A stretch of DNA of 64,000 bases, from the NCBI RefSeq assembly GCF_011045215.1, contig NZ_CP049201.1; one strand, given 5' to 3'. This document shows, in pieces, positions 1 to 37,799 of the stretch (positions within the stretch are counted from its first letter, which is position 1; every line of letters starts with the position of its first letter). The notes under the pieces were generated by a model. That model was not told the DNA's origin. It saw only the letters and a list, made by a program, of their open reading frames with translations, and did not search any database. This DNA is from Escherichia coli. GTDB lineage: Bacteria > Pseudomonadota > Gammaproteobacteria > Enterobacterales > Enterobacteriaceae. A program made the translations under genes and the position numbers.

Positions 1-269
1 CCATCGAGAAAGCACTCGGTATTGACCAGGTACGCTTGATCACCACCGGCGGCGACGCCTTTGAAGCCGAACGTGAGCAGTGGAACGACGCCAATAACGT
101 TCTGACCATCCGCCCCGGTGTGGTGATTGGTTACGAGCGCAACGTCTGGACTAACGAGAAATACGACAAAGCCGGCATCACCGTGCTGCCCATCCCGGGG
201 GACGAATTGGGACGAGGCCGCGGCGGCGCACGCTGCATGAGCTGTCCGCTTGAACGCGACGGAATTTAA
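1..269 (+). CDS. arcA: Arginine deiminase, C-terminal fragment (5' end lies outside the window)
   Basis: Frame continues open from the window edge; C-terminus ...[17 protein letters not shown] carries the conserved catalytic Cys motif of arginine deiminases; followed by carbamate kinase and OTC genes. Confidence 0.8.
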
Positions 270-279
270 AGGAGCCATC

Positions 280-1191
280 ATGGAACGAAAACCCACTTTG
301 GTTGTGGCGTTGGGCGGCAACGCATTATTGAAGCGCGGCGAACCACTGGAAGCAGAAATCCAGCGCCAGAACATTGAGTTGGCCGCCCGTACCATCGCCG
401 GGCTCACGGTGAATTGGCGCGTGGTGTTGGTTCACGGCAACGGTCCACAGATCGGGCTGCTGGCGCTGCAGAACAGCGCCTACGACAAAGTAACCCCTTA
501 TCCACTGGACGTTCTTGGCGCCGAAAGCCAGGGGATGATCGGCTACATGCTCCAGCAGGCGCTGAAAAACAGCCTGCCACAGCGTGAGGTGAGCGTCCTG
601 CTTACTCAGGTGGAAGTGGACGCTACTGACCCGGCGTTCAGCAACCCGACCAAATATATCGGACCGGTGTACAACGAAGACCTGGCAAAAACACTGGCAG
701 CAGAAAAAGGTTGGGGGTTTAAGGCCGACGGCAGCTACTTCCGTCGCGTGGTGCCATCTCCACAGCCGAAACGCATTGTCGAGAGCGATGCTATTACGGC
801 ACTGATCCAGCGCGACCATCTTGTTATCTGCAACGGCGGCGGTGGTGTGCCAGTTGTGGAAAAGGCTAACGGCTATCGCGGAATTGAGGCGGTGATCGAC
901 AAAGACCTCTCTGCTGCCCTGCTGGCATACCAGATAGGGGCCGACGCACTACTGATTCTCACTGATGCCGACGCGGTTTACCTCGATTGGGGCAAACCGA
1001 CCCAGCGTCCGCTAGCGCAGGTGACGCCAGAACTGCTCAGAGGCATGCAGTTTGACACCGGATCGATGGGGCCGAAAGTGGCCGCCTGCTGCAAGTTTGT
1101 TGAAGCTTGCAACGGTATTGCCGGGATCGGCGCTCTGGTCGACGGGGCTGAGATTTTGGCGGGCAAGAAAGGCACATTGATTCGTAACTGA
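280..1191 (+). CDS. arcC: Carbamate kinase
   Basis: 303 aa from ATG at 280 with AGGAG 7 nt upstream; N-terminus MERKPTLVVALGGNALL typical of the carbamate kinase (amino-acid kinase) family; operon context. Confidence 0.88.
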   Translation: MERKPTLVVALGGNALLKRGEPLEAEIQRQNIELAARTIAGLTVNWRVVLVHGNGPQIGLLALQNSAYDKVTPYPLDVLGAESQGMIGYMLQQALKNSLPQREVSVLLTQVEVDATDPAFSNPTKYIGPVYNEDLAKTLAAEKGWGFKADGSYFRRVVPSPQPKRIVESDAITALIQRDHLVICNGGGGVPVVEKANGYRGIEAVIDKDLSAALLAYQIGADALLILTDADAVYLDWGKPTQRPLAQVTPELLRGMQFDTGSMGPKVAACCKFVEACNGIAGIGALVDGAEILAGKKGTLIRN

Positions 1192-1275
1192 ATCCCCCTT
1201 CACCTAACCCTCTCCTCAAAGGGGAGATGGCAGAGTGAGGGCATCAGACAGTTAAAATTTAAAAAGGATTTCCTA

Positions 1276-2280
1276 ATGACCATCAATTTGAAAAAACGCA
1301 ACTTCCTTAAACTGCTGGACTACACCCCGGCAGAGATCCAGTACCTGATCGATCTCGCGATCAAACTGAAAGCGGCCAAAAAAGCCGGACGAGAAAAACA
1401 GACCTTGGTTGGCAAAAACATTGCCCTGATTTTTGAAAAAACCTCCACCCGTACCCGCTGTGCTTTCGAAGTGGCTGCGTTCGACCAGGGGGCGCAGGTG
1501 ACCTACCTCGGCCCAGGCGGATCGCAAATCGGCCATAAAGAGTCAATGAAAGACACCGCCCGTGTGCTGGGCCGTATGTATGACGGCATCGAATACCGTG
1601 GTTACGGTCAGGCCATCGTTGAGGAGTTGGGCAAATACGCGGGCGTACCGGTGTGGAACGGTCTGACCGACGAATTTCACCCAACCCAAATCCTCGCAGA
1701 TTTGATGACCATGCTGGAACATTCCCCGGGCAAAAAACTGTCGGAACTGAGCTTTGCCTACCTTGGCGACGCACGCAACAACATGGGTAACTCCCTGATG
1801 GTGGGGGCTGCCAAAATGGGGATGGATATCCGTCTTGTAGCCCCAAAATCCTTCTGGCCGGATGTGGTGCTTGTTGAACAGTGCCGTTCCATCGCGGAAG
1901 AGACGGGCGCACGTATCACCCTGACCGATGACGTGGAAGAAGGCGTGTGGGGAACGGATTTCCTCTACACCGATGTTTGGGTCTCCATGGGTGAACCGAA
2001 AGAGGCGTGGACCGAACGCGTCAGCCTGATGAAGCCTTATCAAATCAACGCTGACGTGATGAACGCCACCGGCAACCCGAACGTCAAGTTCATGCACTGC
2101 CTGCCAGCCTTCCACAATGAGCACACCAAAGTGGGCCGAGAAATTGAGATGGCATACGGCCTGAAGGGACTGGAGGTGACGGAAGAGGTCTTCGAATCCC
2201 CTAACTCTATCGTCTTTGATGAAGCAGAAAACCGCATGCATACCATTAAAGCGGTCATGGTGGCGACACTCGGCGACTAA
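1276..2280 (+). CDS. arcB: Ornithine carbamoyltransferase, catabolic type
   Basis: 334 aa; STRTR carbamoyl-phosphate binding motif, HCLP motif; strong similarity to E. coli ArgI recalled from memory; lies inside the ADI operon. Confidence 0.92.
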
Positions 2281-2327
2281 TCACCACCCGGTGCGTCGTA
2301 GGGTGCACCGGGTCTCAGGAGAACATC

Positions 2328-3731
2328 ATGGGTAAGTTCAAATTTCCCTCCGCATATACCATTCTCTTTTTTCTGATTGCCATCGTTGCCGTCCTGACGT
2401 GGATCATTCCAGCCGGGCAGTATCACATGGCAATGAACGAAGCTCTCGGCAAGGAGGTTCCTGTTGCCGGCACCTATGCACACGTAGAGGCCAATCCGCA
2501 GGGACTGATTTCAGTGCTGATGGCCCCAATTGCCGGGTTGTATGATCCAGACTCCGGTCAGGCTAGGGCGATAGACGTTGCGCTGTTTATTCTGATCATC
2601 GGAGGATTCCTCGGGATCGTCACCAAAACCGGGGCCATTGACGCCGGAATCGAGCGCGTCACCACCCGACTACGTGGTCGCGAAGAGTGGATGATCCCGA
2701 TCCTTATGGCGCTGTTTGCTGCTGGCGGTACAATTTACGGCATGGCCGAAGAATCCCTGCCGTTTTATACCCTGCTGGTGCCGGTGATGTTGGCAGCACG
2801 CTTCGACCCTGTGGTAGCCGCCTCCACCGTGCTGCTCGGCGCCGGGATCGGCACGCTCGGTTCCACCATTAACCCTTTCGCGACGGTGATCGCCGCCAAT
2901 GCAGCCGGGATCCCCTTCACCAACGGTATCACCTTGCGTGTGGTGGTGCTTGTCATCGGCTGGATAATCTGCGTGACATGGGTGATGCGCTATGCCCGGA
3001 AAGTTCGCAAGGAGCCGTCTCTCTCCATTATTGCGGATAAACAAGAGGAGAACCTCGCCCACTTCCTCGGCAATAAAAGCGAACAGGCTCTGGAGTTCAC
3101 CCCGGTACGCAAAATTATTCTGGTGATTTTCGCCCTTACCTTCGCGGTCATGATCTACGGCGTGGCGGTGCTGGGTTGGTGGATGGCGGAGATCTCAACG
3201 GTATTTCTGGCCAGCGCAATTATCATCGGCCTGATCGCCCGCATGAGCGAAGAGGAACTGACCTCTACCTTTATCAACGGCGCGCGAGATTTGCTGGGCG
3301 TTGCACTGATTATCGGTATCGCGCGCGGTATCGTAGTGATCATGGATAAAGGTATGATTACCCATACTATTTTGCACTACGCCGAGGGAATGGTTACTGG
3401 ATTATCGACAGTAGCATTCATCAACGTGATGTATTGGCTGGAAGTGGTGCTGTCGTTTCTTGTGCCTTCTTCGTCCGGTCTGGCCGTTCTGACGATGCCG
3501 ATCATGGCACCTCTTGCCGACTTCGCTAACGTCAACCGCGACCTGGTAGTTACGGCTTACCAGTCTGCGTCCGGTATCGTTAACCTGATCACTCCCACCT
3601 CTGCCGTTGTGATGGGCGGACTGGCTATCGCCCACGTGCCTTACGTGCGATATCTGAAATGGGTTGCGCCGCTGCTTGGGATATTAACAGTGGTAATTAT
3701 GGTGGCATTAAGTCTGGGGGCATTGTTGTAA
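2328..3731 (+). CDS. YfcC-family polytopic membrane transporter (putative arginine/ornithine exchanger of the ADI operon)
   Basis: 467 aa, multiple hydrophobic helices, Gly/Ala-rich segments; positioned between OTC and the ArgR-like regulator. Confidence 0.75.
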   Translation: MGKFKFPSAYTILFFLIAIVAVLTWIIPAGQYHMAMNEALGKEVPVAGTYAHVEANPQGLISVLMAPIAGLYDPDSGQARAIDVALFILIIGGFLGIVTKTGAIDAGIERVTTRLRGREEWMIPILMALFAAGGTIYGMAEESLPFYTLLVPVMLAARFDPVVAASTVLLGAGIGTLGSTINPFATVIAANAAGIPFTNGITLRVVVLVIGWIICVTWVMRYARKVRKEPSLSIIADKQEENLAHFLGNKSEQALEFTPVRKIILVIFALTFAVMIYGVAVLGWWMAEISTVFLASAIIIGLIARMSEEELTSTFINGARDLLGVALIIGIARGIVVIMDKGMITHTILHYAEGMVTGLSTVAFINVMYWLEVVLSFLVPSSSGLAVLTMPIMAPLADFANVNRDLVVTAYQSASGIVNLITPTSAVVMGGLAIAHVPYVRYLKWVAPLLGILTVVIMVALSLGALL

Positions 3732-3811
3732 TTTGCCGGATGGCGCTGCCCCTATCCGGTCTACGGAATGGTGTGGTGTCACCGGTTATTTCGAGAACTG
3801 AATATAGGATT

Positions 3812-4291
3812 ATGATGGATTACGAAGATTTCTCTCCCAAAGAGCAACTACAGCTAACGGTCTGCCAACGTCTGATTGCAGAAAAGAGCTATTTTTCCCA
3901 AGAGGAGCTCCGCCGCGACTTACAGGAGCGTGGTTTTGAGACAATCAGCCAGTCCACCGTTTCTCGTCTGCTCAAGTTGTTAGGTGTCATAAAAATTCGA
4001 AATGCCAAAGGGCTAAAAGTCTATTCGCAGAATCCACAGTTGCGTCCGGCTCCTGATGCCGCGCGCACTGTGTCCGAAATGGTGGTGAGCGTTGAGCACA
4101 ATAGAGAATTTATCCTTATCCATACCGTTGCTGGATATGGCCGCGCAGTGGCACGTGTCCTTGATTATCACCAGTTGCCAGAAATTTTAGGCGTGGTGGC
4201 CGGAAGCAGTATCGTCTGGGTCGCTCCTCGGATGGTGAAGCGTGTCGCTCTGGTGCATAAGCAAATTAATTATTTACTAAGAACGTATTAA
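3812..4291 (+). CDS. ArgR-family arginine repressor-like regulator
   Basis: About 159 aa from the ATG at 3812 (the ORF-track start at 3659 is probably too far upstream); resembles ArgR in the N-terminal winged-helix (...SQSTVSRLLKLLGVIKIRNAKG...) and C-terminal oligomerisation region. Confidence 0.78.
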   Translation: MMDYEDFSPKEQLQLTVCQRLIAEKSYFSQEELRRDLQERGFETISQSTVSRLLKLLGVIKIRNAKGLKVYSQNPQLRPAPDAARTVSEMVVSVEHNREFILIHTVAGYGRAVARVLDYHQLPEILGVVAGSSIVWVAPRMVKRVALVHKQINYLLRTY

Positions 4292-4484
4292 TATTCACAA
4301 ATGCCCGCTTGTATTGACTAATACATACATTAAATCGCTTCATTCGCAAAGCGAGTTTCCTATAATGCCTGATAATGTGCCAGGAGGGAGCATAGTCAAG
4401 CGTGTACGATATAACGTCTCACCGCGTCTGAAATCAGACACTGGCTTGGTGTTTTATTCCCGTTGCTTAATCTATTCCTTGGGT

Positions 4485-4508
4485 CCCTCATTTGAGGGGC
4501 TTTTTTTG
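4485..4508 (+). terminator. Intrinsic terminator (GC stem ccctc/gaggg plus T7 run)
   Basis: Hairpin 4485-4498 followed by tttttttg; ends either the arc operon read-through or a short transcript starting near 4370. Confidence 0.5.
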
Positions 4509-4528
4509 CTCGGCATCAGGAGATAAAC

Positions 4529-4678
4529 ATGAATCCGTTTTATCAAAAAATAAATGCCCCTAGCCGCGAAGTGCTGGAGCTCGTTCTAAAAATCGCAGCA
4601 AAAATTGAAAACCATTCCTCAACCATCGCGGCGTTCGTATGCGCCGCCAATGATGCGCCCGAAAACGCGTCAATATGA
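4529..4678 (+). CDS. Small hypothetical ORF (49 aa) whose 3' end lies in a 63-bp repeat
   Basis: ATG at 4529 preceded by AGGAGA; translation MNPFYQKINAPSREVLELVLKIAAKIENHSSTIAAFVCAANDAPENASI; the last 14 codons recur at 4955-5017. Confidence 0.25.
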   Translation: MNPFYQKINAPSREVLELVLKIAAKIENHSSTIAAFVCAANDAPENASI

Positions 4679-5043
4679 GTTCGCCGGAATATTACTCTGC
4701 TGTCGGGAGTTGAACGCCTGACGACAGGAAATGAGCCAGGCCAGCCACCACGCGGGCTGACAGCGAATCAGAACCTGAGTCAGCCCGGAGCCATTCCCGG
4801 GGCTGCACTTCATCACCTGCCACCAGTACCCGTGTCAGTACTTCGCGACCTGACGCAATTATCCGACTCAGTCCTTCAGAACCCGCCTCCGATACCAGCC
4901 TGGCGCTCGCCCCTGCGCAAGCAAAATAAATCAACCATTGTCAGACTGCGATCATTCGTATGCACCGCCGATGACGCGCCCGAAAACGCGTCAATATGAG
5001 TTCGCCGGAATATTACTCAATATGAGTTCGCCGGAATATTACG
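4634..5043. repeat. Direct repeats: 63-bp unit at 4634-4696 and 4955-5017; 26-bp subunit (caatatgagttcgccggaatattac) in three copies at 4671-4696, 4992-5017, 5018-5043
   Basis: Read directly from the sequence; lies between the ADI operon and the cdiI terminator. Confidence 0.8.
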
Positions 5044-5065
5044 CCTAGCTGGGGGTTTTCTGTGC

Positions 5066-5096
5066 ACAAAAAAATCCCGGCATAATGGCCGGGATT
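5066..5096 (-). terminator. Intrinsic terminator of the cdi operon (minus strand)
   Basis: Palindrome atcccggc...gccgggat followed on the minus strand by a T7 run, just downstream of the cdiI stop. Confidence 0.6.
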
Positions 5097-5110
5097 TGCG
5101 AGCTTTCCCA

Positions 5111-5485
5111 CTATTTCTTGATTCCTAAACGGAACATATCAGTTGGGAATAAAGGTTGTATTATCACTTCATCATTAAAAATGAATAATTTGGGCGATAA
5201 AGCTGTTACGTCATAGATATTTTCAGCGATTAATCTTAGATTTGACCTAAAAACTGGAATACTTGCATCATCTACAAAGACAAACATGTCATCGTTTTTT
5301 ACAGAGTTTGCACACAATAGCTCATCAAAACTCTCATAATCAGAATGCCAGATCTCTGACCAAGTAACACTTCCTTTCGCGAGAGGGTACTTATTTAAAA
5401 TGCCCAGAGCCTCCTGCTGAGCCAGCCCCTCTACTATATTAAAATCAGCACTCAGTGCTTCCCGACACTCATCAAATAAAGTCAT
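5111..5485 (-). CDS. cdiI: CdiI immunity protein (cognate to the CdiA-CT encoded at 5494-6246)
   Basis: 124-aa acidic protein starting 5 nt after the cdiA stop codon; position and size typical of cdiI. Confidence 0.75.
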   Translation of the reverse strand: MTLFDECREALSADFNIVEGLAQQEALGILNKYPLAKGSVTWSEIWHSDYESFDELLCANSVKNDDMFVFVDDASIPVFRSNLRLIAENIYDVTALSPKLFIFNDEVIIQPLFPTDMFRLGIKK

Positions 5486-5490
5486 TTGCT

Positions 5491-8400
5491 CTACCTGTTT
5501 AGCTGTTTCAATATTGTTTCAAAAGACTTTTCATTGCCTTCAAAAGGTATGACTTGCTTCACCGCTTTTCCAGGGCCTTTACCCTGCGAGTAATCCCATA
5601 TATTGATGTGTGTGCCTTTTTCAGGATCATAATCAACACGCCAACCAACTTTTCCGTCGCTGGATTGCCGCCCTATGACTTTCCCATTACCAGCGCTGAC
5701 TTCCAAACGTCCGATAACTGGCTTAGAGTCCGCTCCTAAATTACCTACAAGATCCAATGCCTTGTTTCGAGCAGTTTCCCAGTTTTTCTCTGGCTTGAGG
5801 ATTTGTTCAATTTTAGGCTGGGAATTCCCTTTAACCTTACTAATTCCCCCAAATGCTGACGCCGCAGCGCTCGCGACTATTCCCGCCTGAACTTCATCCA
5901 AACCGTATTCTTCTTGGAGTGCTTCCGAGACTTTGTTGGTCGCGACAACCCCTTCAGCCTGCATTTGCTGCGCAAAAGTCGCCGTCAGATCGTAGACCAT
6001 TTTGATCGGGATATCTTCACCCAGAGCACGATCTATTGCCTGCTTCACCGCCAGACTGTCAGTCAGTACATCACCGTATTTCTGCTGGCAGGTTGCCGGG
6101 CTGGCTGCACAGTCACTGATCAGTTGCTTTTGCTGTGCCGTACTCAACTCTTCGTACTTTTTGATAATACCGCCGCAGTCACCGCCTTTCGCCTGACAGG
6201 ACTTCATTTCAGCGGACCAAGCATCTATCTGCTTACTGCTCAGATAGTTATTCTCAACAGTTGTCTTACCTGACTGTGCGCCGGCTACCGCTGAAGCCCC
6301 CGAGTCTCCCACCAGACCACCGGCCAGGCCGGCAGCAACCGTTGCCAGTGTCGAGACCGTCTGCTTCTCTGTCTCGCTCAGTTCACTCACCGGCTTACCG
6401 TACATCTGTGTGGCTATCATTCCCACCACCTCGCCGGTGGCTGCACCTGCAGCACCGGCAAGGGCATTCTTACCCTGTGCCAGAGACAGGGCGGCATTCA
6501 CTACTGCATGAGCTGCCACACGCCCCGCACCGTCCGGGGTGGTCTGTTTGATAATTTCAGCAATATACGGCGCTGCACCACCTGCCAGGGCTGCACTCAG
6601 ATTACCGCCGGCCAGTCCCTGTACCGCTGCCGTTGCGGCCTGTATCGCCTGCTGGTATTTGCCTCCCGTTCCAAAACCGGAGGCTGCCATACCGTTATTG
6701 TAGGCCCGCTGTGCCACATCCTGTTCCGTGTACGGTTTTCCTGCTGCCTCAAGCTCTGCGCGGGCCTGATTCAGTGCTGCCGGGTCCCGCTTCGCTTTCT
6801 CACCGGCTATCTGTCCTTCCGTTCTGGCAATATCTGCCACCTGGTTACCAATCTCACCAATGAGTTGCGCCTGCTGCAACCGCTGCTGCTCTTTTTCCCT
6901 GTCAAAGATGGGGGACAGCGTCTGGTTTGCATGCGCAACGTCACGGTTCAGGTCTGCCACATCCTGTTTCTGGCTCTGTGTATCCCGGATAGTGATATTC
7001 CCGGCAGACACAGCCGACTGCGTGGTACTGTCCGCATGGCCTTCATGATTTGCACCGACCAGCAGATTGTTTGCCATGTTCCCCAGGAAATTTCCGGCAA
7101 CACTGCCACCGGTACTGAGCCCTGCACTCTGATGTTCCGTTTTAAAGTCAGCCCGGTTTTCAGTGTCACTGAAGCCCAGTGTGCCGGTATCCAGCCTGTT
7201 TTTATCTGCCGTTGCCGTGGACGCAATCACCGCACCGTTCAGTTGCGTATGCTGTCCGGTGGTGACATCAAACCCGCCCCTGCCGGCAAAAATCCCCGTC
7301 TGCTCCTGTACACTGTCGTAGTTACTGTGCATTTTATCCCGGCTGAGGTTCACACTCGCCGAACCGCTCATGGACCCGAAAGTGAAGCTGCCTCCGGCGC
7401 TGGCATTCTGCTGCTTACTGTCATAACGGTCACTGTCCTGCTCACTGGTCAGTGTCAGATGACGACCGGCATCCACTTTCACCGTTTCACCGCCAGCCTG
7501 CGCGCCGGTAAGCGTGGTGTCCCGCCCGCTGATAATGGTCAGCCGGTTTCCCGCATCCACCGTGGTTTCTGTATGGGTGGTACCGTTGCCTTTTTCACTG
7601 CCCTTACCCTGGTTTGCGCTGGCTGACAGACTGAAACCAGGCCCTCCGGGCCCCACACCGATACCGACACCCACGCTGCCACCACTGGATGTGTTCTTTC
7701 CTTCCAGCTTTGACGTGTTTTCTGCTGATACCAGATTCACGTCACGGTTTGCCTGCAGCAGAACGTTGTTCCCGGCCTTTATCTGACCGCCCTGTATCGT
7801 CAGGTCACCATCCACGCCCTTCACGCCGGAGCCGGTGGCCTGAATACTGAGGTTATTACCTGCGGTCAGTGTACTGCCCTTCGCCACCGTCTGCTCTGAC
7901 TGCTGTTCTGATTTCGAAGACTGGCTGCCGTAAGAGAGGCTGATACCCACGGTATTGTTATTCTCTTTCTGGTTGCCCTGTGCTTCTGCCAGTCGTCCGG
8001 CCTGCACGGCCTGAGCCCCCGAGAGCGCGGCCTTCACCCCCTGCAGGGCTTCAAGCCGGCTGTTTCCGGCAGATTTCGCCGCCTGTACGGTCTCCACCGT
8101 CGTGTTCAGGGCGCTGCCCGCTGTGCCGGACAGGGCAAGCGTCAGACCGGAGGTTTTCTGCTCCACCGTATGTGTCTGCACATGCCGGTCAGTGGCGGCG
8201 GTAATGCTGACCTCCTTACCACTGAGTGCCATGTCCCTGCCGGCAATCAGGTCAGAGCCGTTGACGGTCAACCGGTTACCTGCCTGAAGGGAAACATCAC
8301 CGTGAACACTCCCCACCGTGCTGCCTTTCTGCGTGGTGTCTGTTGCGGTGTCCGTGACCTTCAGACTCTGGCTGCCCACGCTGAATCCCACACCTCCGGA

Positions 8401-11400
8401 GCTCATCAGTCCGGATTTTTTCTCCTGTTTCAGGTGTGTTTCACGGTTGCTTTCTGTCAGCGTTCCGATACTCAGGTTATTTCCGGCAGCCAGGGAGACA
8501 CGGTTATCCCCGGCCACACTGCTGCCCGTGACGTTCAGATTATGTCCGGCACCGATACTGACCGTATCCCCGTTCAGTTCACTGCCCGTCATGGTCCGGC
8601 GGTCAGTGACATCATGCGTGGTAGTGGTGGTTTTCGATAACATCCCGCTGTTGCCGGTCACTTTATGGTATTCATCCAGCGAGCGGGTATTCTGTGCACC
8701 GGTCAGCGTCACGTCATGACCCGCCATCAGGGCCAGGCCTTTCTGAGCTGACAGCGATGCCGCCTGTGACGTCATATCCCGTCCGGCGGTCAGCGTGACA
8801 TCACCGTTACCGGCAAGTGTGCTGCCCGTATTCTGTGTGACGCCCTGCGACAGACGATTATTTTTATCCCAGGTAATATTGTCCTGCGCGGATGTGGTCA
8901 CCGTGGAAAGCGTCATATCCCTGCCGGCACTGAGTTGTGTCAGGCTGTCCTTACCCTGATTCACCACCGTTGCCGCCGTCAGATTCATATCCCGTCCGGC
9001 CTGCAGCACCAGTCTTCCCTGGTCGTTCTGCACATACACGCCGGCCACACTGTCGATACTGGTACGTTCAAAATGGTTCTGCCCGGCGTCGCGCTGTGCC
9101 GTACGGGTGGTGGTGGTCAGACTGATATCCCGTCCGGCCATCGCCAGCAGGCTGTCCGTGGCCTGCAGCAGCCCGCCGGTACTGTTAATATCCGTCCGGG
9201 CCGTCAGGCTGACATTTGCTCCCTGAATGGTGCCGGCCTGGTTGTGAATGTTTTCTGCACTGAGCTGCACGGCCTGCTTCCCGGCCAGTTTACCGCTGTT
9301 AAACAGGTCACCATCCAGCTTCATCACCATGTCCCTGCCGGCAATCAGCGCACCGGCACTGTTCACATCACCGGGTTTTACACGGGCATACACCTGAGGT
9401 ACCTGAACCGTCTGCGTGCTGCCGTCCGGCAGTGTCACCGTGGTGTTAACCAGCCAGACAATATCACCGGTCAGTAACGCCATCTGCTCAGCAGTCAGCG
9501 CCACACCTGGTGTCAGGTTGTATTGCTTACCAAATGCAATACCCGCATCCATTAACGCCTTAAACTGCTCTTCATCATTACTGTATCCGTCCAGGTACCG
9601 TTGCCCGGTCAGAGCGACAACCTGCTCACGAATCAGACGCTGTTCGTAAAAACCATCCCCCAGGCGTTTGAGCATGTTATCCCCGTTCTGAGAAAACGCC
9701 TTCTGCATGTAATCACTGCCCAGCCACGTCTTCTGGTTCGTAAAACGCGGGTCCGTTTCAACCAGATATGGCACATTCACTGCCGGATTTGTTTTAAACA
9801 GGCTGCTGTCCGGCAGACGGGTATCCGGCCCGGCAACATGGATACTGCCCTGAGGTGCGCTGACTTCAAACTGCTGCCCCGGCAACAGAATGACCGGTTC
9901 ACCGGCTGACACCACCGGGCGAAGCGGTATCCGGTCAGTAACGGCTACTGTCGCATCCACATTTCCGGTCAGTCCTGTCTGTACATCCGTTCCCTGTGGC
10001 TTCAGGGGAGAAAGCGTGACCTGGCTGCCCTGAACCTGTCCGTGGCTGGTGAGCTCTCCCGGCTTCAGCGTGATGGTCTGAATGACGGGGGGCGGCTCGT
10101 AAGGGGAAATTCTTTCCCCCTGCCTGTCATTTTTATTTTTTCTTTTTATCCGGTAATAATATGTGGATGTCCCTTTATCAGTAACATGGCGCTCTCCGCT
10201 GACACTGACGTTTTCCACATCACCGGCCTGCATATCCAGCAGACCACCTGCAACCACCTGGCTCTTGTCATTAAGCAGTTTGTCTGCCACAACCGTCATG
10301 CCGGCACCGGACAGTATTTTCCCCGGGTCGGAGTCTTTTACCCGGGTTTCCTCCACGGTACGGGTGTATTCATATTTTGTGAACCGGTCGTTGTTATGTC
10401 CGGTATCATCCGGCGTGTTCAGGTTCAGCAGTCCATCAGAGGAGTTGTTATCAATGAACACCCCCTCATCTTTTGCATTCCAGCGGACATCTGACCCGCG
10501 ATGCTGATACTCAGTCACCTTTTCCGTGGAGACCACCACGCGCTCCGTGGTGAAATGGTCATTGACGTTATTGATTTGCCCGGCACTCAGTGTCAGGGAA
10601 CCGGCGGCTTCAATCGTGGCACTGTGATTATTCAGTACACCGGCTTTCCCCGTGGCGGCGCCATTCGCATCCAGCATGCCACCGATATGCATATCACCTG
10701 CACTGTAAATCAGGCTGTGCGTCCGGTTATTCAGGGTCTGTACCCCCAGGTCCACACGCTCACGTCCGGCCAGCGTCGCCGCCACGCCATTTTCATCCAG
10801 ATTATTAAATGTGGCAGCGCTGACACCAACAGCATCGCCGTAGATTCGCCCGGTACCGGAATTCGTCAGGGTGTTCGCCTGAAGATGCGTATATTTCCCG
10901 TCAATCAGCCCACGGTTCAGCAGTGTGTCCGTCACGTTAAGCCAGGTCTGCCCGGCACTGATTTCACCTTTCTCTGTGTTTTCAAGGCGGATGCTGTTCA
11001 GGTCAAGCCGGCTGCCTGCCAGCAGGCTGCCGGTATTAGAGACATCGCCATTAACGGAAAGCGTAAGGTTTCCGTTTGCAATGGTCTGACCACTGTTACT
11101 GAACGCTGTGTTACTTTTCAGCGTTATATCGCCCGGCGAAAGCAGTTTCCCGTCACCACCAAGCTGACCGACATCCACAGAGACTGACTGCCCGGCCTTA
11201 ACCACGCCGTCACGGTTCGAAAACGCCAGCTGACGGCCACTGACAGACAATGTCGCGCCGGAAGAGAGCACGCCATCATTATTACTGAGCGTCCTGTCTG
11301 CCATAACCGTAAGCGCCCTGTCTGCCAGAATACTGCCCTCCTGGTTATCAAGGTCCTGCGTCGTGATGTGTATTGTCTGCGCTTCCAGCCCCTGGCCGGT

Positions 11401-14400
11401 ATTCTGCGTGTGGCGATTGATAAACTGCAGGGCGTTCAGCGTAATGGCAGAACCACTGCGAATCAGACCAGAGACGTTGTCCACAACGCCCCGTACACTG
11501 TCGAACAGAATGTCGCCCACAGACTGTATCTGTCCGTGGCTGTTCTGCAGGCCTCCCGTATGCAGACGGAGTTCACCTTCACTGACCAGCCGGCCACCCT
11601 CACGGTTATCCAGCGAGGTGGTGCTCAGGTCAGCTGTCGTTTTCGCCCCCACGGTCCCGCCCCGGTTATCCATTGCTCCGGTACTGACAGTCAGTTCCTG
11701 CAGGCTGTTCAGCGTACCCCCTCTGTTATCCAGCGTCCGGCCTGCGCTATTAATGCTGATGCCTTTCCCCTGAATAAGACCGGACTGATTGTTCAGCGCC
11801 AGACTGTTCCGGCCGGGCAGACCGGTCGCCACAATCTGACCATTCGCCACCACCTGACCGGATGTATTGTTAACCACGCCTGCAGTCAGGGACAGCGCAT
11901 CTCCCGACAAAAGCACACCGGCAGTGCTGTCCAGTGTGCCGGCATTCAGCGTCATCGGGCCCTGACTGATAACCCCGCCCCGGTCACCACTGTTACGGTT
12001 GCTCAGTGTGTCAGCACGGAGATTCAGTGTGGCACCGCTCTGTATCAGACCACCTGCATCATTGCTGATATCCGTCGAGGAAAGGGTCAGTGACTGCTGT
12101 GCCACCAGTCTGCCGCCCTGATTATCAGAGCGGGTGACATCCAGCCTGCTGTTACCGTTGCTGACCACCGTCCCCTGCTGATTTTCCAGCACATTCAGGT
12201 GCGCATTCAGGTCCCCGCCGGCGGCAAGCGTCCCTTCCTGATTACTGACATCGCCACCACTCAGCAACATATCCGTCCCGGCCTTCAGTGCGCCTTTCTG
12301 GTTCATCAGCGTACCTGACGATATCTGTAATGACGCCTGACTCCCCAGCACGCCCTGACGGTTATCGAGCGTTCCGGCGTTCAGGGTCATATCCTTCTGA
12401 CCCGCCATAAATCCCTGCTGGTTATTCAGCATACCGGCCCGTACTGTCAGGGTACCGGCGCTGCTGATACCACCCCGTGTTTTCGTGTTCCGGTTACTGA
12501 GAACCCCGTCCTGTACATCCAGCGTCATGTCACTGCCGGACTGAATCAGACCATCATCAGAGACCAGTTCGCTGCCTGACACAGACAGCGTTTTCTGTGA
12601 AAGCAGTCTGCCGGACGTATTATCCAGCGCACCATCCAGCGTCACGGACAGCCCGTCAGACACCACCGTACCCTGGTGGTTATTCAGACTCCCTGCCGAA
12701 ATATCCAGCCTGCCGGCGGACTCCATTCGTCCCTCAGTATTGCTGACAGCCTGCTGTGTTTTTATCCTGCCCGTTCCGGCAGCAGCTGAAATCAGTCCGT
12801 TGTCGTTATTCAGTGCCTGTGTATTAATCAGGATGTCACGGCTGGCAATCAGACTTCCCTGCTGGTTATCCACGGCGCCGGTTGTCCTCACCTGCAGACT
12901 ACCTGACTGCGCCGCCTGCACTTTCCCCCTGCGATTATCAAGGCTCAGTGCATCCAGGCGCACCGCGCCATTTGCCGCAAGCAGCCCTTCCCGGTTATCC
13001 ACACCTCCCGGCAGGTTCAGTGAAAAATCCCCTGTTCCCGTCTGAATCAGTTTACCCCTGTGGTTTGACAGGCTCTGTGCTGATATCTGCAGTGTGTCGG
13101 CATTTATCGTGCCGTCATTATTGCTGAACTGCCCGGCAGTCCGGGCGGAAAGCGTACCGGCACTCAGTTGCGCATTTTGCGTGAACAGATTTCCGCTGCC
13201 TGCATCCAGCTCAGTATGTTGTCCCTGTATCCGGCTGTTGCTTAAATCCAGCCCCTGCCCCTTCAGTTGCATGTCCCCACCGGACAGAACCTGTCCGTGT
13301 GCCGCCAGTTCGCCGGTGGTACTGACAGTCAGGTTGCCCGCTGCCGCCAGACGTCCGTCATCTTTCACCCCGGCGGCCAGCAGACTCCGCTCACCGCCGG
13401 TCAGACGCGCTGTCTGAATCCGGGTGTTGCGACGTGATGCCACAGAGCCTGTATGGGTGAATACACCATCACTCTGTATCTGCGTATCCTGCCCCGCATA
13501 AACAGAACCACTGTTATGCAGCTCCCGGGTTGTCACCAGATGCACATCCGTTTTCGCACTGATACTGCCACTGTTTTCAATTCGTCCGTCAGCCGTCAGG
13601 GTAACCGCCCCTGCCTGCGCACCAATATGACCGGCGTTACGAACACCCACCCCCGTTTCCGTACCGACAAGGCGAATTTTTCCGGCATACATTCCACCAA
13701 GGCTGGACACATCCAGCGCCACCTGTGGCTGCGAAGAGGCATCAGCGGCTTTTTTCTCAGTCTGCCCGTGTGCAATATCCACATTGTTACGTCCGGTGGT
13801 CACTTTCAGGTCCTGCGCCCAGATACCCGCATTAATCTTCACAGACCGGGCAATGATATCGGTATAATCCGTGCGCGAGGCATCCATCCCTTTGCCCGTA
13901 ATCTGAATCTCACCACGTTCAACACTGAATCCGGTCAGACTGCCGTTTTTCATCTGAGGCTGCCCCGTGGTCAGCGTGGCCCGGTTCGCATTAATAAAAC
14001 CGCACCCGTCGCAACTGATGCCGGCCGGGTTCGCAATCACCACCTGCGCCTTTTTCCCGGCAACCTCAACAAAACCGTTCAACTGGCTGGGATTGCGACT
14101 GTTCACTTCATTAAGAATGATTCGGGCCTCTCCCTTCGCCAGCCACGGGTTACCGGCAACCATGCCGCCCAGTTGGGTCTGCACATTTTTATGCGAGTTA
14201 TTCAGAATGACACCCTGATGACTGACATCAAACTGACTGTAAGTATTGTGCGATACCCCACCTGCAGAAGGTGTCTGGATATTGACCTGAGGAATGCCGC
14301 TGGCTGTCTGCGTAATCGTGGGCTGCTGATGCCCCGGTGCGCCATGGTCTGCGACAATGCCTGCAGCACTGACAGAATGCACCATCCCCGAGGCCAGCCA

Positions 14401-14565
14401 CAGGGAGAATGCAAGCGATGTGACACGGCAGATACGTTGCCTGCGTGGATATCCTGTACGGGAGGAGGGTGATGCACCGGCGCGACCGGAACGGGCAATA
14501 TCTGCCACCACCATCAGCATTCCCCGGGCTTTGTTAAAAATAATGCGGTAACAATTTTTGTTCAT
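5491..14565 (-). CDS. cdiA: CdiA contact-dependent inhibition exoprotein (TpsA/filamentous-haemagglutinin family), 3024 aa
   Basis: N-terminal extended signal peptide MNKNCYRIIFNKARGMLMVVADIA; TPS domain; long Gly/Thr/Asn/Ser-rich FHA-type repeats; VENN motif at codons 6247-6258; 251-aa variable C-terminal domain. Confidence 0.95.
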   Translation of the reverse strand: MNKNCYRIIFNKARGMLMVVADIARSGRAGASPSSRTGYPRRQRICRVTSLAFSLWLASGMVHSVSAAGIVADHGAPGHQQPTITQTASGIPQVNIQTPSAGGVSHNTYSQFDVSHQGVILNNSHKNVQTQLGGMVAGNPWLAKGEARIILNEVNSRNPSQLNGFVEVAGKKAQVVIANPAGISCDGCGFINANRATLTTGQPQMKNGSLTGFSVERGEIQITGKGMDASRTDYTDIIARSVKINAGIWAQDLKVTTGRNNVDIAHGQTEKKAADASSQPQVALDVSSLGGMYAGKIRLVGTETGVGVRNAGHIGAQAGAVTLTADGRIENSGSISAKTDVHLVTTRELHNSGSVYAGQDTQIQSDGVFTHTGSVASRRNTRIQTARLTGGERSLLAAGVKDDGRLAAAGNLTVSTTGELAAHGQVLSGGDMQLKGQGLDLSNSRIQGQHTELDAGSGNLFTQNAQLSAGTLSARTAGQFSNNDGTINADTLQISAQSLSNHRGKLIQTGTGDFSLNLPGGVDNREGLLAANGAVRLDALSLDNRRGKVQAAQSGSLQVRTTGAVDNQQGSLIASRDILINTQALNNDNGLISAAAGTGRIKTQQAVSNTEGRMESAGRLDISAGSLNNHQGTVVSDGLSVTLDGALDNTSGRLLSQKTLSVSGSELVSDDGLIQSGSDMTLDVQDGVLSNRNTKTRGGISSAGTLTVRAGMLNNQQGFMAGQKDMTLNAGTLDNRQGVLGSQASLQISSGTLMNQKGALKAGTDMLLSGGDVSNQEGTLAAGGDLNAHLNVLENQQGTVVSNGNSRLDVTRSDNQGGRLVAQQSLTLSSTDISNDAGGLIQSGATLNLRADTLSNRNSGDRGGVISQGPMTLNAGTLDSTAGVLLSGDALSLTAGVVNNTSGQVVANGQIVATGLPGRNSLALNNQSGLIQGKGISINSAGRTLDNRGGTLNSLQELTVSTGAMDNRGGTVGAKTTADLSTTSLDNREGGRLVSEGELRLHTGGLQNSHGQIQSVGDILFDSVRGVVDNVSGLIRSGSAITLNALQFINRHTQNTGQGLEAQTIHITTQDLDNQEGSILADRALTVMADRTLSNNDGVLSSGATLSVSGRQLAFSNRDGVVKAGQSVSVDVGQLGGDGKLLSPGDITLKSNTAFSNSGQTIANGNLTLSVNGDVSNTGSLLAGSRLDLNSIRLENTEKGEISAGQTWLNVTDTLLNRGLIDGKYTHLQANTLTNSGTGRIYGDAVGVSAATFNNLDENGVAATLAGRERVDLGVQTLNNRTHSLIYSAGDMHIGGMLDANGAATGKAGVLNNHSATIEAAGSLTLSAGQINNVNDHFTTERVVVSTEKVTEYQHRGSDVRWNAKDEGVFIDNNSSDGLLNLNTPDDTGHNNDRFTKYEYTRTVEETRVKDSDPGKILSGAGMTVVADKLLNDKSQVVAGGLLDMQAGDVENVSVSGERHVTDKGTSTYYYRIKRKNKNDRQGERISPYEPPPVIQTITLKPGELTSHGQVQGSQVTLSPLKPQGTDVQTGLTGNVDATVAVTDRIPLRPVVSAGEPVILLPGQQFEVSAPQGSIHVAGPDTRLPDSSLFKTNPAVNVPYLVETDPRFTNQKTWLGSDYMQKAFSQNGDNMLKRLGDGFYEQRLIREQVVALTGQRYLDGYSNDEEQFKALMDAGIAFGKQYNLTPGVALTAEQMALLTGDIVWLVNTTVTLPDGSTQTVQVPQVYARVKPGDVNSAGALIAGRDMVMKLDGDLFNSGKLAGKQAVQLSAENIHNQAGTIQGANVSLTARTDINSTGGLLQATDSLLAMAGRDISLTTTTRTAQRDAGQNHFERTSIDSVAGVYVQNDQGRLVLQAGRDMNLTAATVVNQGKDSLTQLSAGRDMTLSTVTTSAQDNITWDKNNRLSQGVTQNTGSTLAGNGDVTLTAGRDMTSQAASLSAQKGLALMAGHDVTLTGAQNTRSLDEYHKVTGNSGMLSKTTTTTHDVTDRRTMTGSELNGDTVSIGAGHNLNVTGSSVAGDNRVSLAAGNNLSIGTLTESNRETHLKQEKKSGLMSSGGVGFSVGSQSLKVTDTATDTTQKGSTVGSVHGDVSLQAGNRLTVNGSDLIAGRDMALSGKEVSITAATDRHVQTHTVEQKTSGLTLALSGTAGSALNTTVETVQAAKSAGNSRLEALQGVKAALSGAQAVQAGRLAEAQGNQKENNNTVGISLSYGSQSSKSEQQSEQTVAKGSTLTAGNNLSIQATGSGVKGVDGDLTIQGGQIKAGNNVLLQANRDVNLVSAENTSKLEGKNTSSGGSVGVGIGVGPGGPGFSLSASANQGKGSEKGNGTTHTETTVDAGNRLTIISGRDTTLTGAQAGGETVKVDAGRHLTLTSEQDSDRYDSKQQNASAGGSFTFGSMSGSASVNLSRDKMHSNYDSVQEQTGIFAGRGGFDVTTGQHTQLNGAVIASTATADKNRLDTGTLGFSDTENRADFKTEHQSAGLSTGGSVAGNFLGNMANNLLVGANHEGHADSTTQSAVSAGNITIRDTQSQKQDVADLNRDVAHANQTLSPIFDREKEQQRLQQAQLIGEIGNQVADIARTEGQIAGEKAKRDPAALNQARAELEAAGKPYTEQDVAQRAYNNGMAASGFGTGGKYQQAIQAATAAVQGLAGGNLSAALAGGAAPYIAEIIKQTTPDGAGRVAAHAVVNAALSLAQGKNALAGAAGAATGEVVGMIATQMYGKPVSELSETEKQTVSTLATVAAGLAGGLVGDSGASAVAGAQSGKTTVENNYLSSKQIDAWSAEMKSCQAKGGDCGGIIKKYEELSTAQQKQLISDCAASPATCQQKYGDVLTDSLAVKQAIDRALGEDIPIKMVYDLTATFAQQMQAEGVVATNKVSEALQEEYGLDEVQAGIVASAAASAFGGISKVKGNSQPKIEQILKPEKNWETARNKALDLVGNLGADSKPVIGRLEVSAGNGKVIGRQSSDGKVGWRVDYDPEKGTHINIWDYSQGKGPGKAVKQVIPFEGNEKSFETILKQLNR
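5494..6258 (-). other. VENN motif plus CdiA-CT polymorphic toxin domain (251 aa)
   Basis: gttgagaataac (VENN) encoded on the minus strand at 6247-6258; Cys-rich segment (SCQAKGGDCGG...DCAASPATCQQ) right after VENN; distinct C-terminal domain ...GWRVDYDPEKGTHINIWDYSQGKG... Confidence 0.8.
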
Positions 14566-14580
14566 TCTGATAAACCTGAC

Positions 14581-15108
14581 TTATCTCTCCGGCACATCCA
14601 CAGCAAGCGGGTGCTGCACACGCCACTGGCGCGCCTCTTCACGACTGACCTGTGCACCCCGGAAATTCATCACCCGCAACCCGGTCTGCTGCCCACGGTG
14701 GTACAGCGAACGCCAGCACAGACGGGGAAAAATATCCTGCCGGACAAGACGACTCATATCCGGGGTATGTCCAAAAGGGGCAATCCAGTCACAGACCCAC
14801 ATCCGGTCGCCGCTGTTCCAGTCCGACTGAGGCATGAGAATTGCCGGCTGCGTAAGATAACGCGCCTCTGCCTCCGGGCTGAGCCAGGCCTGGCTCATGA
14901 AGAAAACCGGTCGCCCCTGCTCTGTTGCCACCACATACTGTCGGTGCTTAATCACCGGCAGCAGCAGGTCCGGCAGGGTATGCAGTGGCGCATCACGATG
15001 CAGGGGGGAGTGCATCCACAACCAGACGGCCGCCCCCAGGACTTCCGCCTCATTGACCGGCTCACCGGAATACAGGGGACTCAGAACGTCATATTTCCCG
15101 TTACGCAT
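14581..15108 (-). CDS. cdiC: CdiC, HlyC/TAAT-family lysine acyltransferase
   Basis: 175 aa; WLWMHSPLHRD ... HRQYVV ... WNSGDRMWVCDWIAPFGH closely parallel the HlyC motifs (WLWASSPLHRN ... NQYVLL ... WTSGDRKWFIDWIAPFGD, recalled from memory); sits between cdiB and cdiA. Confidence 0.85.
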   Translation of the reverse strand: MRNGKYDVLSPLYSGEPVNEAEVLGAAVWLWMHSPLHRDAPLHTLPDLLLPVIKHRQYVVATEQGRPVFFMSQAWLSPEAEARYLTQPAILMPQSDWNSGDRMWVCDWIAPFGHTPDMSRLVRQDIFPRLCWRSLYHRGQQTGLRVMNFRGAQVSREEARQWRVQHPLAVDVPER

Positions 15109-15117
15109 GAAACTTTC

Positions 15118-16857
15118 TCAGAAATCCCGGAACAGATTAAAACCGGCTGTCACATCACTCGTCATAAAACCCGCCGGCTTTGAAAACGGACGACCGATGA
15201 AAACGTCATAATCCGTACTGAACAGTTGCCCCCTCAGCCCCACAACACCACCAGCCAGATGACGTCCCACCAGGTATTCACTGCCGGCTCCCCCCACCTC
15301 GCCGTAATCCATTCCCAGATATAACTCCTGCTCCGGCAGTGGCGTACGCCAGGCCAGGTCGTTGCGGATATACCAGCCGTTACTGGCATTCAGCGTTCGC
15401 TCCCCGTCAAAACCACGAACCGTCCAGCGGTTACCGATGGCAAACTGTTCCTGTGGGGTCAGCGGGGTATTGCTCAGCTGGCGCTGATACCGGAAGGAAT
15501 AACTGAAGGGCTGCCCTGCAAGGGTAAAGGGCAGATTAAAGGATGCATTCAACTGCAGGATCTTACTGAGCGCCGTTGCCTCACCGAACGTTTCTTCCGG
15601 CGCCGGCTGTGCACCAAACCAGCGGGTTCCCCGTTGCCAGCTGACACCAGCATCCAGTGTGGCCTGAGAAATATAATGACGGTGCTGCAGCCCAAGTCGC
15701 CAGGCCGCTGTCTGCCGGCGCTGCACCTGGATTTCCGTATCATTAATGTAGTTACGCGACCTGCGGGCCTGAACATCGTAGGTCAGCACCGTTTTCTGCG
15801 TCCCGTTACGGTGCAGTACCCGGCTCAGCTGCATACCCAGATTCTGACTCTCGCCACTGTACTGGTAATCCTCAACCGCACCAGCTACCGTCTGATGGTA
15901 ATCGTAATCACTGGCGGTGACGGAAAACTGCCAGTAGCCGAAAGGCACAGAGTAATGGGCCGTGTAGTTTTTACTGCCCTTACCCCCGTAATGTGGAAAA
16001 TTACGGGTGGCAGAAACATACAGCAGGTCACTCAGGGAAAAAGGATTATCCAGAGAAAATGTTATACCACCGAGATAACGCCCTGTGCTGCGGGTACCTG
16101 AATCATCAAGCGAAAACCCCAGTCGCCAGTATTTGTCCTGTTTGCGGGTAATAAGAATGTCACTTTCCCCTGGCTGCTCACCGGGTACAATTTCCATATC
16201 AGCCTGCACACCCGGCAGTCGTTGCATATTCTCCAGCCCCTGCTCAATGTCCCGTAAATCCAGCAGAGAACCTTCGTGTGCCGGGAATGAGGAATACAAC
16301 TGAATATAGTCATCACTGTCCGGTGTCAGACGCACATGTCGCACAACACCGGGAATAACAACCAGCCGGAGGATACCGCTTTTTAAATCCTGCGAAGGTG
16401 CCAGAACACGGGTGGTGACATAACCATGATCGACCAGACGGTTCTGCAATGTACTCATCAGCAGATTAATTCCTTTCGCCCCCAGGCAATGCCCGACCGC
16501 CCCGTTGGCGATTTTTTGTAAAGGCAGCCAGTGTGGTAACGCATCAGCCCCCTCCAGTTCCGTCTGTTTAATCTGAAAACAGGGCGTTTCAACAGGAAAA
16601 TTAATCTTACGGGCAAAAGAGCCAGGTGCAGAAAGGCGAACATCAGGGGCTGAAGGCGTCAGTTGTTGCTCAAGGGCTTCCTGACGCTGCTGCTGAATGA
16701 TAAATGCATTATCTCCGCTACGCCGGACATCCGCGGCCTGAAGAGATAAAGGCGATAATAAAACAGACATCAGTGTCAGTGACAGCAAGGACGGACAGCG
16801 CCGGAATACGCTTTGTTCCTCAGCCCTCTCGTTCCTGCAACATAATTTTCCAGTCAA
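15118..16857 (-). CDS. cdiB: CdiB outer-membrane TpsB transporter (ShlB/FhaC/HecB family)
   Basis: 579 aa; signal peptide; POTRA-like N-terminal region and beta-barrel C-terminus ending in an aromatic residue; immediately upstream of cdiC-cdiA. Confidence 0.9.
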
Positions 16858-29933: not shown

Positions 29934-30149
29934 ACGCTAATTCCCGTCACTCTGGTATGCCATCCAGTATGCCATTAGTCTCTCGCTTCACTAAGAATAC
30001 ATTAGATAATATCGGACAACAAAAAGTGTAATACATTGTTTATAATGAAATTATATAACACCCCTGGATTAAGTCAGATTTATTTCAGGCGGTCCCCCTC
30101 ACCGCCATATTTAAATAAATATCCTCCGGCATAGCCGGAGGTTTTTCAA

Positions 30150-32938: not shown

Positions 32939-32948
32939 CTCTTTATCC

Positions 32949-35122: not shown

Positions 35123-35130
35123 AATCAGTC

Positions 35131-37789: not shown

Positions 37790-37799
37790 ACGACTGTCG

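Follow-up and report, generated by a model that had tools for sequence, protein, structure and literature searches.

An arginine deiminase (ADI) operon occupies positions 1-4291 of a 64,000-nt stretch of Escherichia coli DNA (contig NZ_CP049201.1; the window, hereafter, is this whole stretch), close to contact-dependent inhibition (CDI) genes, which raises the question of whether the operon is E. coli DNA that happens to adjoin an acquired island or is itself foreign, and from what source it came. The first-pass annotation described the operon as directly abutting the island and as perhaps part of a larger accessory region; the latter suggestion holds, in that the operon sits inside a genomic island, but its placement at the edge does not, the att-like end of the island lying at about 30.1 kb. 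Judged by sequence comparison, region 1-4291 is very probably the known mobile arc operon of E. coli, carried here as an Enterobacter-like fragment inside the CDI locus of a serX-associated integrase island.

Gene content and predicted pathway

Five genes with family matches far beyond chance lie on the plus strand, and the earlier assignment of ADI-type gene content is borne out. The same annotation called the operon full, which is correct in that all five genes are present, but arcA, encoding arginine deiminase (3..269, +), is cut by the window edge and consists of its last 88 codons only. The C terminus that remains matches positions 318-405 of 405 in NCBIfam model NF002381 (E of 6e-46 in the profile search), and the complete gene, encoding 406 aa, is present in DNA that is 99.9-100% identical (L001 among them), where its score is 609 bits (cut-off, 414). 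Besides the incomplete arcA, the ADI pathway is represented by two genes that score above curated cut-offs: arcC, the carbamate kinase gene, so named in identical genomes (280..1191, +; NF009008, 499.9 bits with a cut-off of 361; TIGR00746, 383 bits versus 358), and the ornithine carbamoyltransferase (OTC) gene of the cluster (arcB, annotated argF; 1276..2280, +; NF003286, 552 bits with a cut-off of 515; TIGR00658, 442 bits versus 281). OTC shares 68% amino acid identity with K-12 ArgI, and its cluster context suggests a catabolic role. The fourth gene (2328..3731, +) encodes a YfcC/DcuC-family membrane transporter (Pfam PF03606, DcuC, 405 bits) that falls under the YfcC equivalog cut-off (295 versus 500) and is therefore regarded as a YfcC paralogue. 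NCBIfam labels YfcC a "putative basic amino acid antiporter," ArcE-type exchangers have been described (ArcE is TC 2.A.118, "basic amino acid antiporter"; PMC5300872), and the transporter is a candidate ArcE-type arginine/ornithine exchanger.

The last gene (3812..4291, +) encodes an ArgR-family regulator of the STM4463 type, for which Pfam Arg_repressor and Arg_repressor_C both score above cut-off and which lies below the ArgR equivalog cut-offs in the profile search. In Salmonella, STM4463, the orthologue of this regulator, controls expression of STM4467, the arginine deiminase. A start at 3659 (ORF 3659-4291) was rejected as an over-extension overlapping the transporter gene, and the annotated start at 3812 was taken. 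The four complete genes (those for ArcC, OTC, the transporter, and the regulator) are intact, and their proteins are identical to those in hundreds of genomes. Promoter scanning returned matches at or below shuffle expectation, leaving two terminator-like hairpins (described below) as the only informative signals, and an Rfam scan of positions 1-6000 at an E value of ≤0.1 gave no match.

Going by these families and by what has been published on close homologues, the YfcC/DcuC-family protein would swap external arginine for internal ornithine, ArcA would convert arginine to citrulline and NH3, OTC would phosphorolyse citrulline to ornithine and carbamoyl phosphate, and ArcC would turn carbamoyl phosphate into ATP, CO2, and NH3, the cluster being under the control of the ArgR-family protein, probably as an activator.

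The downstream flank and the donor

The first-pass annotation took the 3' flank at 4.5-5.1 kb to be the junction with the cdi/integrase island. A junction of some kind does exist there (4292-5110), but it is an internal IS scar and not an island border. Downstream of the regulator lies a remnant of the pyrL leader peptide gene (4365..4526, +; homologous core at 4395-4526; NF007587 match), annotated "pyrBI operon leader peptide" in relatives, with an altered start codon and with a terminator-like hairpin found by the hairpin scan at the position of the pyrBI attenuator (4481-4502, +). Next is a pyrB' fossil made up of the first 32 codons of aspartate carbamoyltransferase (4529..4624, +), the product of which has 61% amino acid identity to the N terminus of Enterobacter PyrB, and it is here that collinearity with Enterobacter stops. 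The fossil is followed by IS66-family debris (4634..5042, no strand assigned), recognized from local blast matches to IS66-family elements of L001 and L089 at their tnpC-distal ends and consisting of a 64-bp end-like repeat (4634-4697), a terminal 324 bp (4693-5016), and a 26-bp partial repeat (5017-5042); L089 has a complete IS66 element at this position. The second hairpin (5072..5097, −) lies downstream of cdiI. Because Enterobacter collinearity continues through pyrL-pyrB' and is succeeded by IS66 debris, we read 4.3-5.1 kb as an internal scar and the operon as a foreign insert. Two open reading frames of the flank were rejected as genes: 4314-4526 is the pyrL remnant, and 4692-4934 (−) falls within the IS66 debris and has no family match.

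A native ADI locus of the E. coli/Salmonella type is found between tabA and pyrLBI in 558 genomes (e.g., CFT073), and the window operon is only 75% identical to that of CFT073 at the nucleotide level, versus 84-86% to Enterobacter chromosomes, with which blastn alignment is collinear over 1-4624. Protein identities run in the same direction, at 91% for ArcC, 95% for OTC, 94% for the transporter, and 92% for the regulator with E. cloacae, against 84, 89, 80, and 78%, respectively, with CFT073; among the sampled species, none is closer to the window operon than about 86% nucleotide identity. The ADI genes are directly upstream of pyrB in most Aeromonas loci and in all Enterobacteriaceae loci long enough to show the arrangement, whereas the window copy is without the tabA/argI and intact pyrLBI setting, its pyrB being cut at codon 32 and followed by IS66 debris and cdiI. 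By these comparisons, the window copy is evidently not the native E. coli/Salmonella-type locus but a xenolog whose source was an Enterobacter-like chromosome. A piece of roughly 6.3 kb was cut from the conserved argI-ADI-pyrLBI neighbourhood of such a chromosome, and it retains the pyrL leader, 32 codons from the start of pyrB, and the 708 bp preceding arcA.

Earlier statements on occurrence are upheld: the operon is absent from K-12, where the slot reads yjgH-bdcA-bdcR-tabA-yjgL, and an ADI operon is present in Salmonella and some pathogenic E. coli, as well as in Citrobacter. The same statements had passed over the xenolog status of this copy, its Enterobacter-like chromosomal source, and its 75% nucleotide identity to the native locus. 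For the native arc operon of E. coli Nissle, arginine catabolism is known to raise pH (PMC10659395).

The CDI locus, the island, and other copies

Beyond the scar, and on the opposite strand, is a CDI locus consisting of the immunity gene cdiI (5111..5485, −; Pfam PF24172, CdiI_ImmP, 117 bits), the cdiA-CT toxin domain, which starts at the VENN motif (codons at 6247-6258) and extends as far as the stop (5491..6258, −), the cdiA body (6259..14565, −), a cdiC-type toxin-activating lysine acyltransferase gene (14581..15108, −; the name follows the annotation of genomes with 95-97% identity, and there is no NCBIfam match), and cdiB, encoding a ShlB/FhaC-family transporter (15118..16857, −). The cdiA-CT is 100% common to the window and H1 (NZ_CM132658.1), together with the ADI block, but the cdiA body is of another lineage (28-56% amino acid identity to that of H1), and the H1 island occupies ileX/nfeF, unlike that of the window. 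Upstream of arcA in relatives, Enterobacter homology ends 708 bp before the gene; chromosomes L001 and L002 and IncF plasmid L088 share one pre-VENN cdiA fragment joined at this end. The ADI block of relatives has cdi fragments on both flanks; in strain A19, it stands at the end of an orphan array with the same cdiBCA class.

The captured fragment came to rest among the orphan modules of a cdiBCAI locus that is itself within the serX-associated integrase island, with an IS66-family scar on one side and, to judge from relatives, a truncated pre-VENN cdiA fragment on the other. With a cdiA-CT/cdiI cassette on one side of it and a truncated pre-VENN orphan on the other, the ADI block may also have been swapped as CDI-locus cargo, by the VENN-region homologous recombination that shuffles CDI cassettes, between unrelated cdiA genes and islands and finally onto plasmids, a reading that we offer tentatively and at less than even confidence. 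If it were true, selection for immunity/toxin cassettes would drag a metabolic operon along.

The island has the features of a tRNA-associated integrase element, namely, a tyrosine integrase (28731..29933, −; Pfam Arm-DNA-bind_3, Phage_int_M, and Phage_integrase), a repeat of a tRNA 3' end at its border, and core synteny outside. The tRNA scan of the whole window found none, and the border was therefore located by comparison with K-12: an att-like copy of the serX tRNA 3' end (30094..30115, +; 14 nt plus 8 nt downstream) matches K-12 at 22/22 positions, and K-12 homology restarts at 30825 (ycdU), making this the ycdU-side end of the island. The operon is in the orphan-module region of the cdiBCAI locus, about 26 kb inside the island. 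As the window opens within arcA, what is said of the arcA promoter, of the left junction, and of the far island end is drawn from relatives. The arrangement of the whole window occurs in no complete genome of the collection, and a single record covers at least 80% of 14.6-39.5 kb, without the cdi part.

An operon that is core and identically placed in close relatives, which the first-pass annotation named as the outcome that would overturn its view, is not what the distribution shows. Versions with at least 99% identity occur in 347 of 5,426 complete E. coli genomes (none of them K-12), mostly on plasmids (304 places), with about 51 chromosomal copies (~15%; 51/347). Long-form copies, which reach 4695, number 51, and all 30 of those listed are chromosomal. 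In PLSDB, coverage of the query reaches 80% or more in 245 plasmids, and of the 322 plasmid records that match, 263 are predicted to be conjugative; the 25 best-ranked plasmid matches listed are 99.7% identical over 1-4327 and end at 4327, and the one plasmid copy examined for its type (L088) is IncF. Flanks vary among L001, L002, L089, L091, and L088, the ADI block being IS framed, and IS66-family elements flank it on plasmids too. The plasmid copies examined (IncF where typed) represent a shorter cut of the same block.

Alternative readings and known systems

A native or core origin of the operon in E. coli, with mere adjacency to an acquired cdi/integrase island, is scarcely credible. Such a reading could appeal to the GC content of positions 1-4000 (51-58%), which is E. 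coli-like and higher than that of the AT-rich island interior, and to the existence of a chromosomal ADI locus in some E. coli, but the true native locus has another position (tabA-ADI-pyrLBI) and just 75% identity to the window copy, which breaks off in a truncated pyrB and IS66 debris; in relatives, cdi fragments flank both sides, and some 94% of complete genomes lack the operon, most copies of which are plasmid borne. It is refuted by the native-locus comparison, the distribution, the K-12 slot, and Enterobacter collinearity combined. A subtler question concerns the direction of travel. Chromosomal copies keep ~300 bp more donor context (pyrL and pyrB', to 4624) than the listed plasmid copies, which end at 4327, and a plasmid carries the pre-VENN cdiA fragment at the same junction, sensible only as the relic of a CDI locus; derivation of the chromosomal copy from an IncF plasmid, instead of plasmid copies from a chromosomal CDI locus, is thus improbable, even with plasmid copies outnumbering chromosomal ones by ~6 to 1, mostly predicted to be conjugative, and likewise flanked by IS66-family elements.

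We also consider it unlikely that the Enterobacter-like insert is silent or decaying cargo without ADI function in its host. Both neighbouring pyr genes, pyrL (with a changed start codon) and pyrB, are fossils, the arcA promoter is outside the window, and the ArgR-like protein and the transporter score below equivalog cut-offs, all of which would fit decay. Yet the four complete genes are intact, and hundreds of genomes have kept proteins identical to their products; in relatives, arcA is accompanied by 708 bp of its native upstream sequence; and the 99.7% identical plasmid operon has measurable fitness effects, according to the summary in PMC7671891.

Billard-Pomares et al. 2019 (Antimicrob Agents Chemother 63:e00635-19) reportedly deals with a mobile arc (ADI) operon that E. 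coli carries on plasmids and on chromosomes. The plasmid operon influences fitness in mouse models (Billard-Pomares et al. 2019, as summarised in PMC7671891 and a 2025 bioRxiv preprint). Because a link has been drawn between the operon and both the success of ST131 and ESBL-producing E. coli and a fitness trade-off between the gut and the urinary tract, its origin and movement are of epidemiological interest. The operon of the window is real and accessory yet already described in E. coli (Billard-Pomares 2019), and the pyrB fossil and the CDI linkage are small additions, which leave the understanding of the pathway unchanged: the pyrL-pyrB' fossil shows excision from an Enterobacter-like chromosome, the chromosomal form is a less-trimmed version of the plasmid cargo, and a physical link joins the block to CDI toxin/immunity loci.

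The staphylococcal arginine catabolic mobile element (ACME) of Staphylococcus aureus USA300 (PMC5452487) offers a likeness by analogy only: there too, a clinically successful lineage has acquired a second arc cluster horizontally, on a mobile island. The mobile element, gene complement, and transporter and regulator families of ACME appear unrelated to those of the window operon. CDI loci with orphan cdiA-CT/cdiI modules are similar in having cdiB-cdiC-cdiA-cdiI followed by truncated pre-VENN fragments and in that identity with another strain stops exactly at VENN, but here the modules have a metabolic operon with an IS scar in their midst. Native Enterobacteriaceae ADI loci (Salmonella STM4467-STM4463; arcA-arcC-arcB-arcD-arcR in CFT073 and Nissle) have the same gene order as the window operon, which is 75-76% identical to them and away from the tabA/pyrLBI slot, although its fossil tail still records the native ADI position directly upstream of pyrLBI. 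Closest is the mobile arc operon of E. coli (Billard-Pomares 2019), with the same five genes in the same order and IS framed, relative to whose plasmid copies the window has a longer chromosomal form, with a pyrL-pyrB' tail and beside a live cdiBCAI operon.

Operon content and separation from the native locus

Profile searches place five genes on the plus strand of window positions 1-4291: the 3' end of arcA (3-269, its last 88 codons, aligned to 318-405 in an arginine deiminase model of 405 positions, E 6e-46), arcC (280-1191; 499.9 bits, cut-off 361), an ornithine carbamoyltransferase (OTC) gene (1276-2280; 552 bits, cut-off 515), a YfcC/DcuC-family transporter gene (2328-3731; Pfam PF03606, 405 bits), and an ArgR-family regulator gene (3812-4291). 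The regulator start is that annotated in identical genomes, and a reading frame beginning at 3659 was rejected as an over-extension. The first-pass annotation called this a full operon, which holds for genomes with 99.9 to 100% identical DNA, where arcA is complete (406 amino acids; 609 bits, cut-off 414), but not within the window, whose edge truncates arcA.

The window belongs to E. coli (positions 1-5500 are 99.9% identical to chromosome NZ_CM132658.1), and the expectation that the arginine deiminase (ADI) operon is accessory there was correct: 347 of 5426 complete E. coli genomes carry this version at at least 99% identity and at least 80% coverage, and another 558 match it at only 75%. 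As also anticipated, the operon occurs in Salmonella and in some pathogenic E. coli, such as CFT073, and is missing from K-12. The CFT073 copy has the identical gene order and is flanked by tabA and an intact pyrL-pyrB-pyrI; in K-12, which has no ADI genes, this slot holds yjgH-bdcA-bdcR. According to a 2025 preprint, clades B0 and C of ST131 differ by gain and loss of these two sets of genes. By sequence comparison, the window operon is a xenolog, separate from the native E. coli locus.

Donor origin and the 3' flank

To place the operon among its relatives, one genome per species was scanned with the transporter protein, yielding 80 loci that were then compared locally. Window positions 1-4624 are collinear with chromosomes of the Enterobacter cloacae complex at 84 to 86% nucleotide identity, versus 75 to 80% for Citrobacter, Salmonella, and Escherichia loci, and no sampled species provided a donor above ~86%. 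Amino acid identities to E. cloacae versus CFT073 are 91% and 84% for ArcC, 95% and 89% for OTC, 94% and 80% for the transporter, and 92% and 78% for the regulator. Collinearity continues past the regulator through a pyrL leader (NCBIfam pyr leader match), an intact, terminator-like pyrBI attenuator hairpin (4481-4502, plus strand), and the first 32 codons of pyrB (pyrB', 4529-4624, plus strand). Because this collinearity extends through pyrL and pyrB', and because ADI genes lie immediately 5' of pyrB in every Enterobacteriaceae locus with room to show the arrangement (likewise in Tatumella, Erwinia, Rahnella, and most Aeromonas), the tail at 4292-4624 is a fossil of the donor's chromosomal neighborhood. 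Within the pyrL remnant (4365-4526), the canonical start position reads ATA, and the annotated frame uses an upstream ATG; the hairpin would stop read-through out of the ArgR-like gene.

The 3' flank had been taken for the junction with the island. It consists instead of the pyrB' end followed by IS66-family debris, comprising a 64-bp repeat that looks like the end of an IS66-family element (4634-4697), the terminal 324 bp of such an element (4693-5016), and a 26-bp partial repeat (5017-5042), and then, beyond a terminator-like hairpin (5072-5097, minus strand), cdiI (5111-5485, minus strand; Pfam CdiI_ImmP). Strain 23CRST026 has a complete IS66-family element at exactly this spot, and the 4.3-5.1 kb segment is an IS scar internal to the island. 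Nor does the operon abut the island, as proposed: it lies within it, the regulator ending ~26 kb inside a border marked by an integrase gene with arm-binding, central, and catalytic domains (28731-29933) and a 22/22 match to the serX 3' end plus 8 downstream bases (30094-30115). Next comes an IS200 transposase gene (30223-30732, minus strand), and from 30825 the sequence is again homologous to K-12, in the direction of ycdU. The opposite border falls outside the window, past its start. The integrase is on the partial-tRNA side rather than beside an intact tRNA, and K-12 (L090, 9015-9579) carries four copies of this 22-mer between serX and ycdU, in tandem repeats of 181 bp. No member of the complete-genome collection reproduces the whole window arrangement.

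Right of ycdU, positions 31994-51340 (minus strand) hold clustered genes for acyl carrier protein (ACP), ketosynthase, dehydratase, reductase, ABC transporter, and lipoprotein-sorting proteins, and after them another two-partner secretion pair (ShlB-type, 45820-47439; FHA-type, 47528-51340); all that K-12 has left there is the ymdE pseudogene and an IS3. A chaperone-usher fimbrial operon occupies 52733-59357 (plus strand) within an AT-rich stretch, its 840-amino-acid usher encoded at 54799-57321.

Linkage to CDI loci and spread

In two E. coli chromosomes (L001, which is NZ_CM132658.1, and L002) and in 23CRST026, Enterobacter homology ends 708 bp 5' of arcA. At that point it is joined, in both chromosomes, to a truncated fragment of cdiA from before its VENN motif ('LAGGDVGAVLAGASAPELAYLLK...AVENN'), and an IncF plasmid has the same fragment and junction. 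Since this fragment is fused upstream in relatives, the ADI block lies among the orphan modules of a CDI locus. E. coli A19 carries, in order, cdiB-cdiC-cdiA of the window's class, several orphan modules, the ADI block, and another VENN fragment; between its orphan modules and the ADI genes is a defense-like pair, an ATP-dependent nuclease and a UvrD helicase (L091, 21819-25140), and past arcA the strain has a pap-like fimbrial operon.

Window positions 5000-6259 are 100% identical to L001 (17001-18260), ending exactly at the cdiA VENN codons (6247-6258), yet upstream of VENN the CdiA bodies are only 28 to 56% identical, and the islands differ, that of L001 lying between ileX and nfeF and that of the window on the serX/ycdU side. 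Thus the cdiA-CT/cdiI cassette, IS scar, and ADI block were swapped as a single unit between unrelated cdiA genes, with one crossover at VENN, and we infer that the block may habitually hitchhike on such exchanges. Among the matches listed, this cassette occurs only in the window and mip270 strains. A cdiC-type toxin-activating lysine acyltransferase gene between cdiB and cdiA (14581-15108, minus strand) makes the locus cdiBCAI-type, a class present at 95 to 97% identity in 178 complete genomes.

Plasmids account for 304 of all matching places in complete E. coli genomes, and PLSDB has this version on 245 plasmids. Most of the matching plasmid records are predicted conjugative, and the single one examined is IncF. 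The 25 best-ranked PLSDB copies stop at window position 4327. A longer form, extending to 4695, occurs in 51 records, and all 30 of those listed are chromosomes. Because the plasmid copy examined keeps the cdi relic but those 25 plasmid copies have no pyrL-pyrB' tail, the sequences point to one capture into a chromosomal CDI locus and more trimming en route to plasmids. Among the matches listed, most chromosomal long-form carriers come from chickens or other birds, many of them poultry, whereas those with the plasmid form are largely clinical isolates from humans.

Proposed function and relation to described operons

Control of the cluster probably falls to the ArgR-family protein, as it does to STM4463 in Salmonella, a role reportedly described by Choi et al. 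in 2012. The OTC is 68% identical to ArgI, and cluster context suggests that it is catabolic; ArcA, OTC, and ArcC would together yield 2 NH3, CO2, and 1 ATP per arginine. The transporter, whose family NCBIfam names "putative basic amino acid antiporters," would bring arginine in and ornithine out. Among 39 gammaproteobacterial arc clusters, 22 encode an exchanger of the ArcE type, a class assigned to TC 2.A.118, the basic amino acid antiporter family (PMC5300872).

The window operon, which is genuine and accessory, was known in E. coli before. Modest detail is contributed by the pyrB fossil, by the inferred direction of transfer from chromosome to plasmid, and by the link to CDI. Function, putative for the window copy, has been demonstrated in close homologues: the plasmid operon altered fitness in mouse models of the gut and urinary tract (Billard-Pomares 2019, as relayed in PMC7671891 and in the 2025 preprint), and the native operon of Nissle raises pH through arginine catabolism (PMC10659395).
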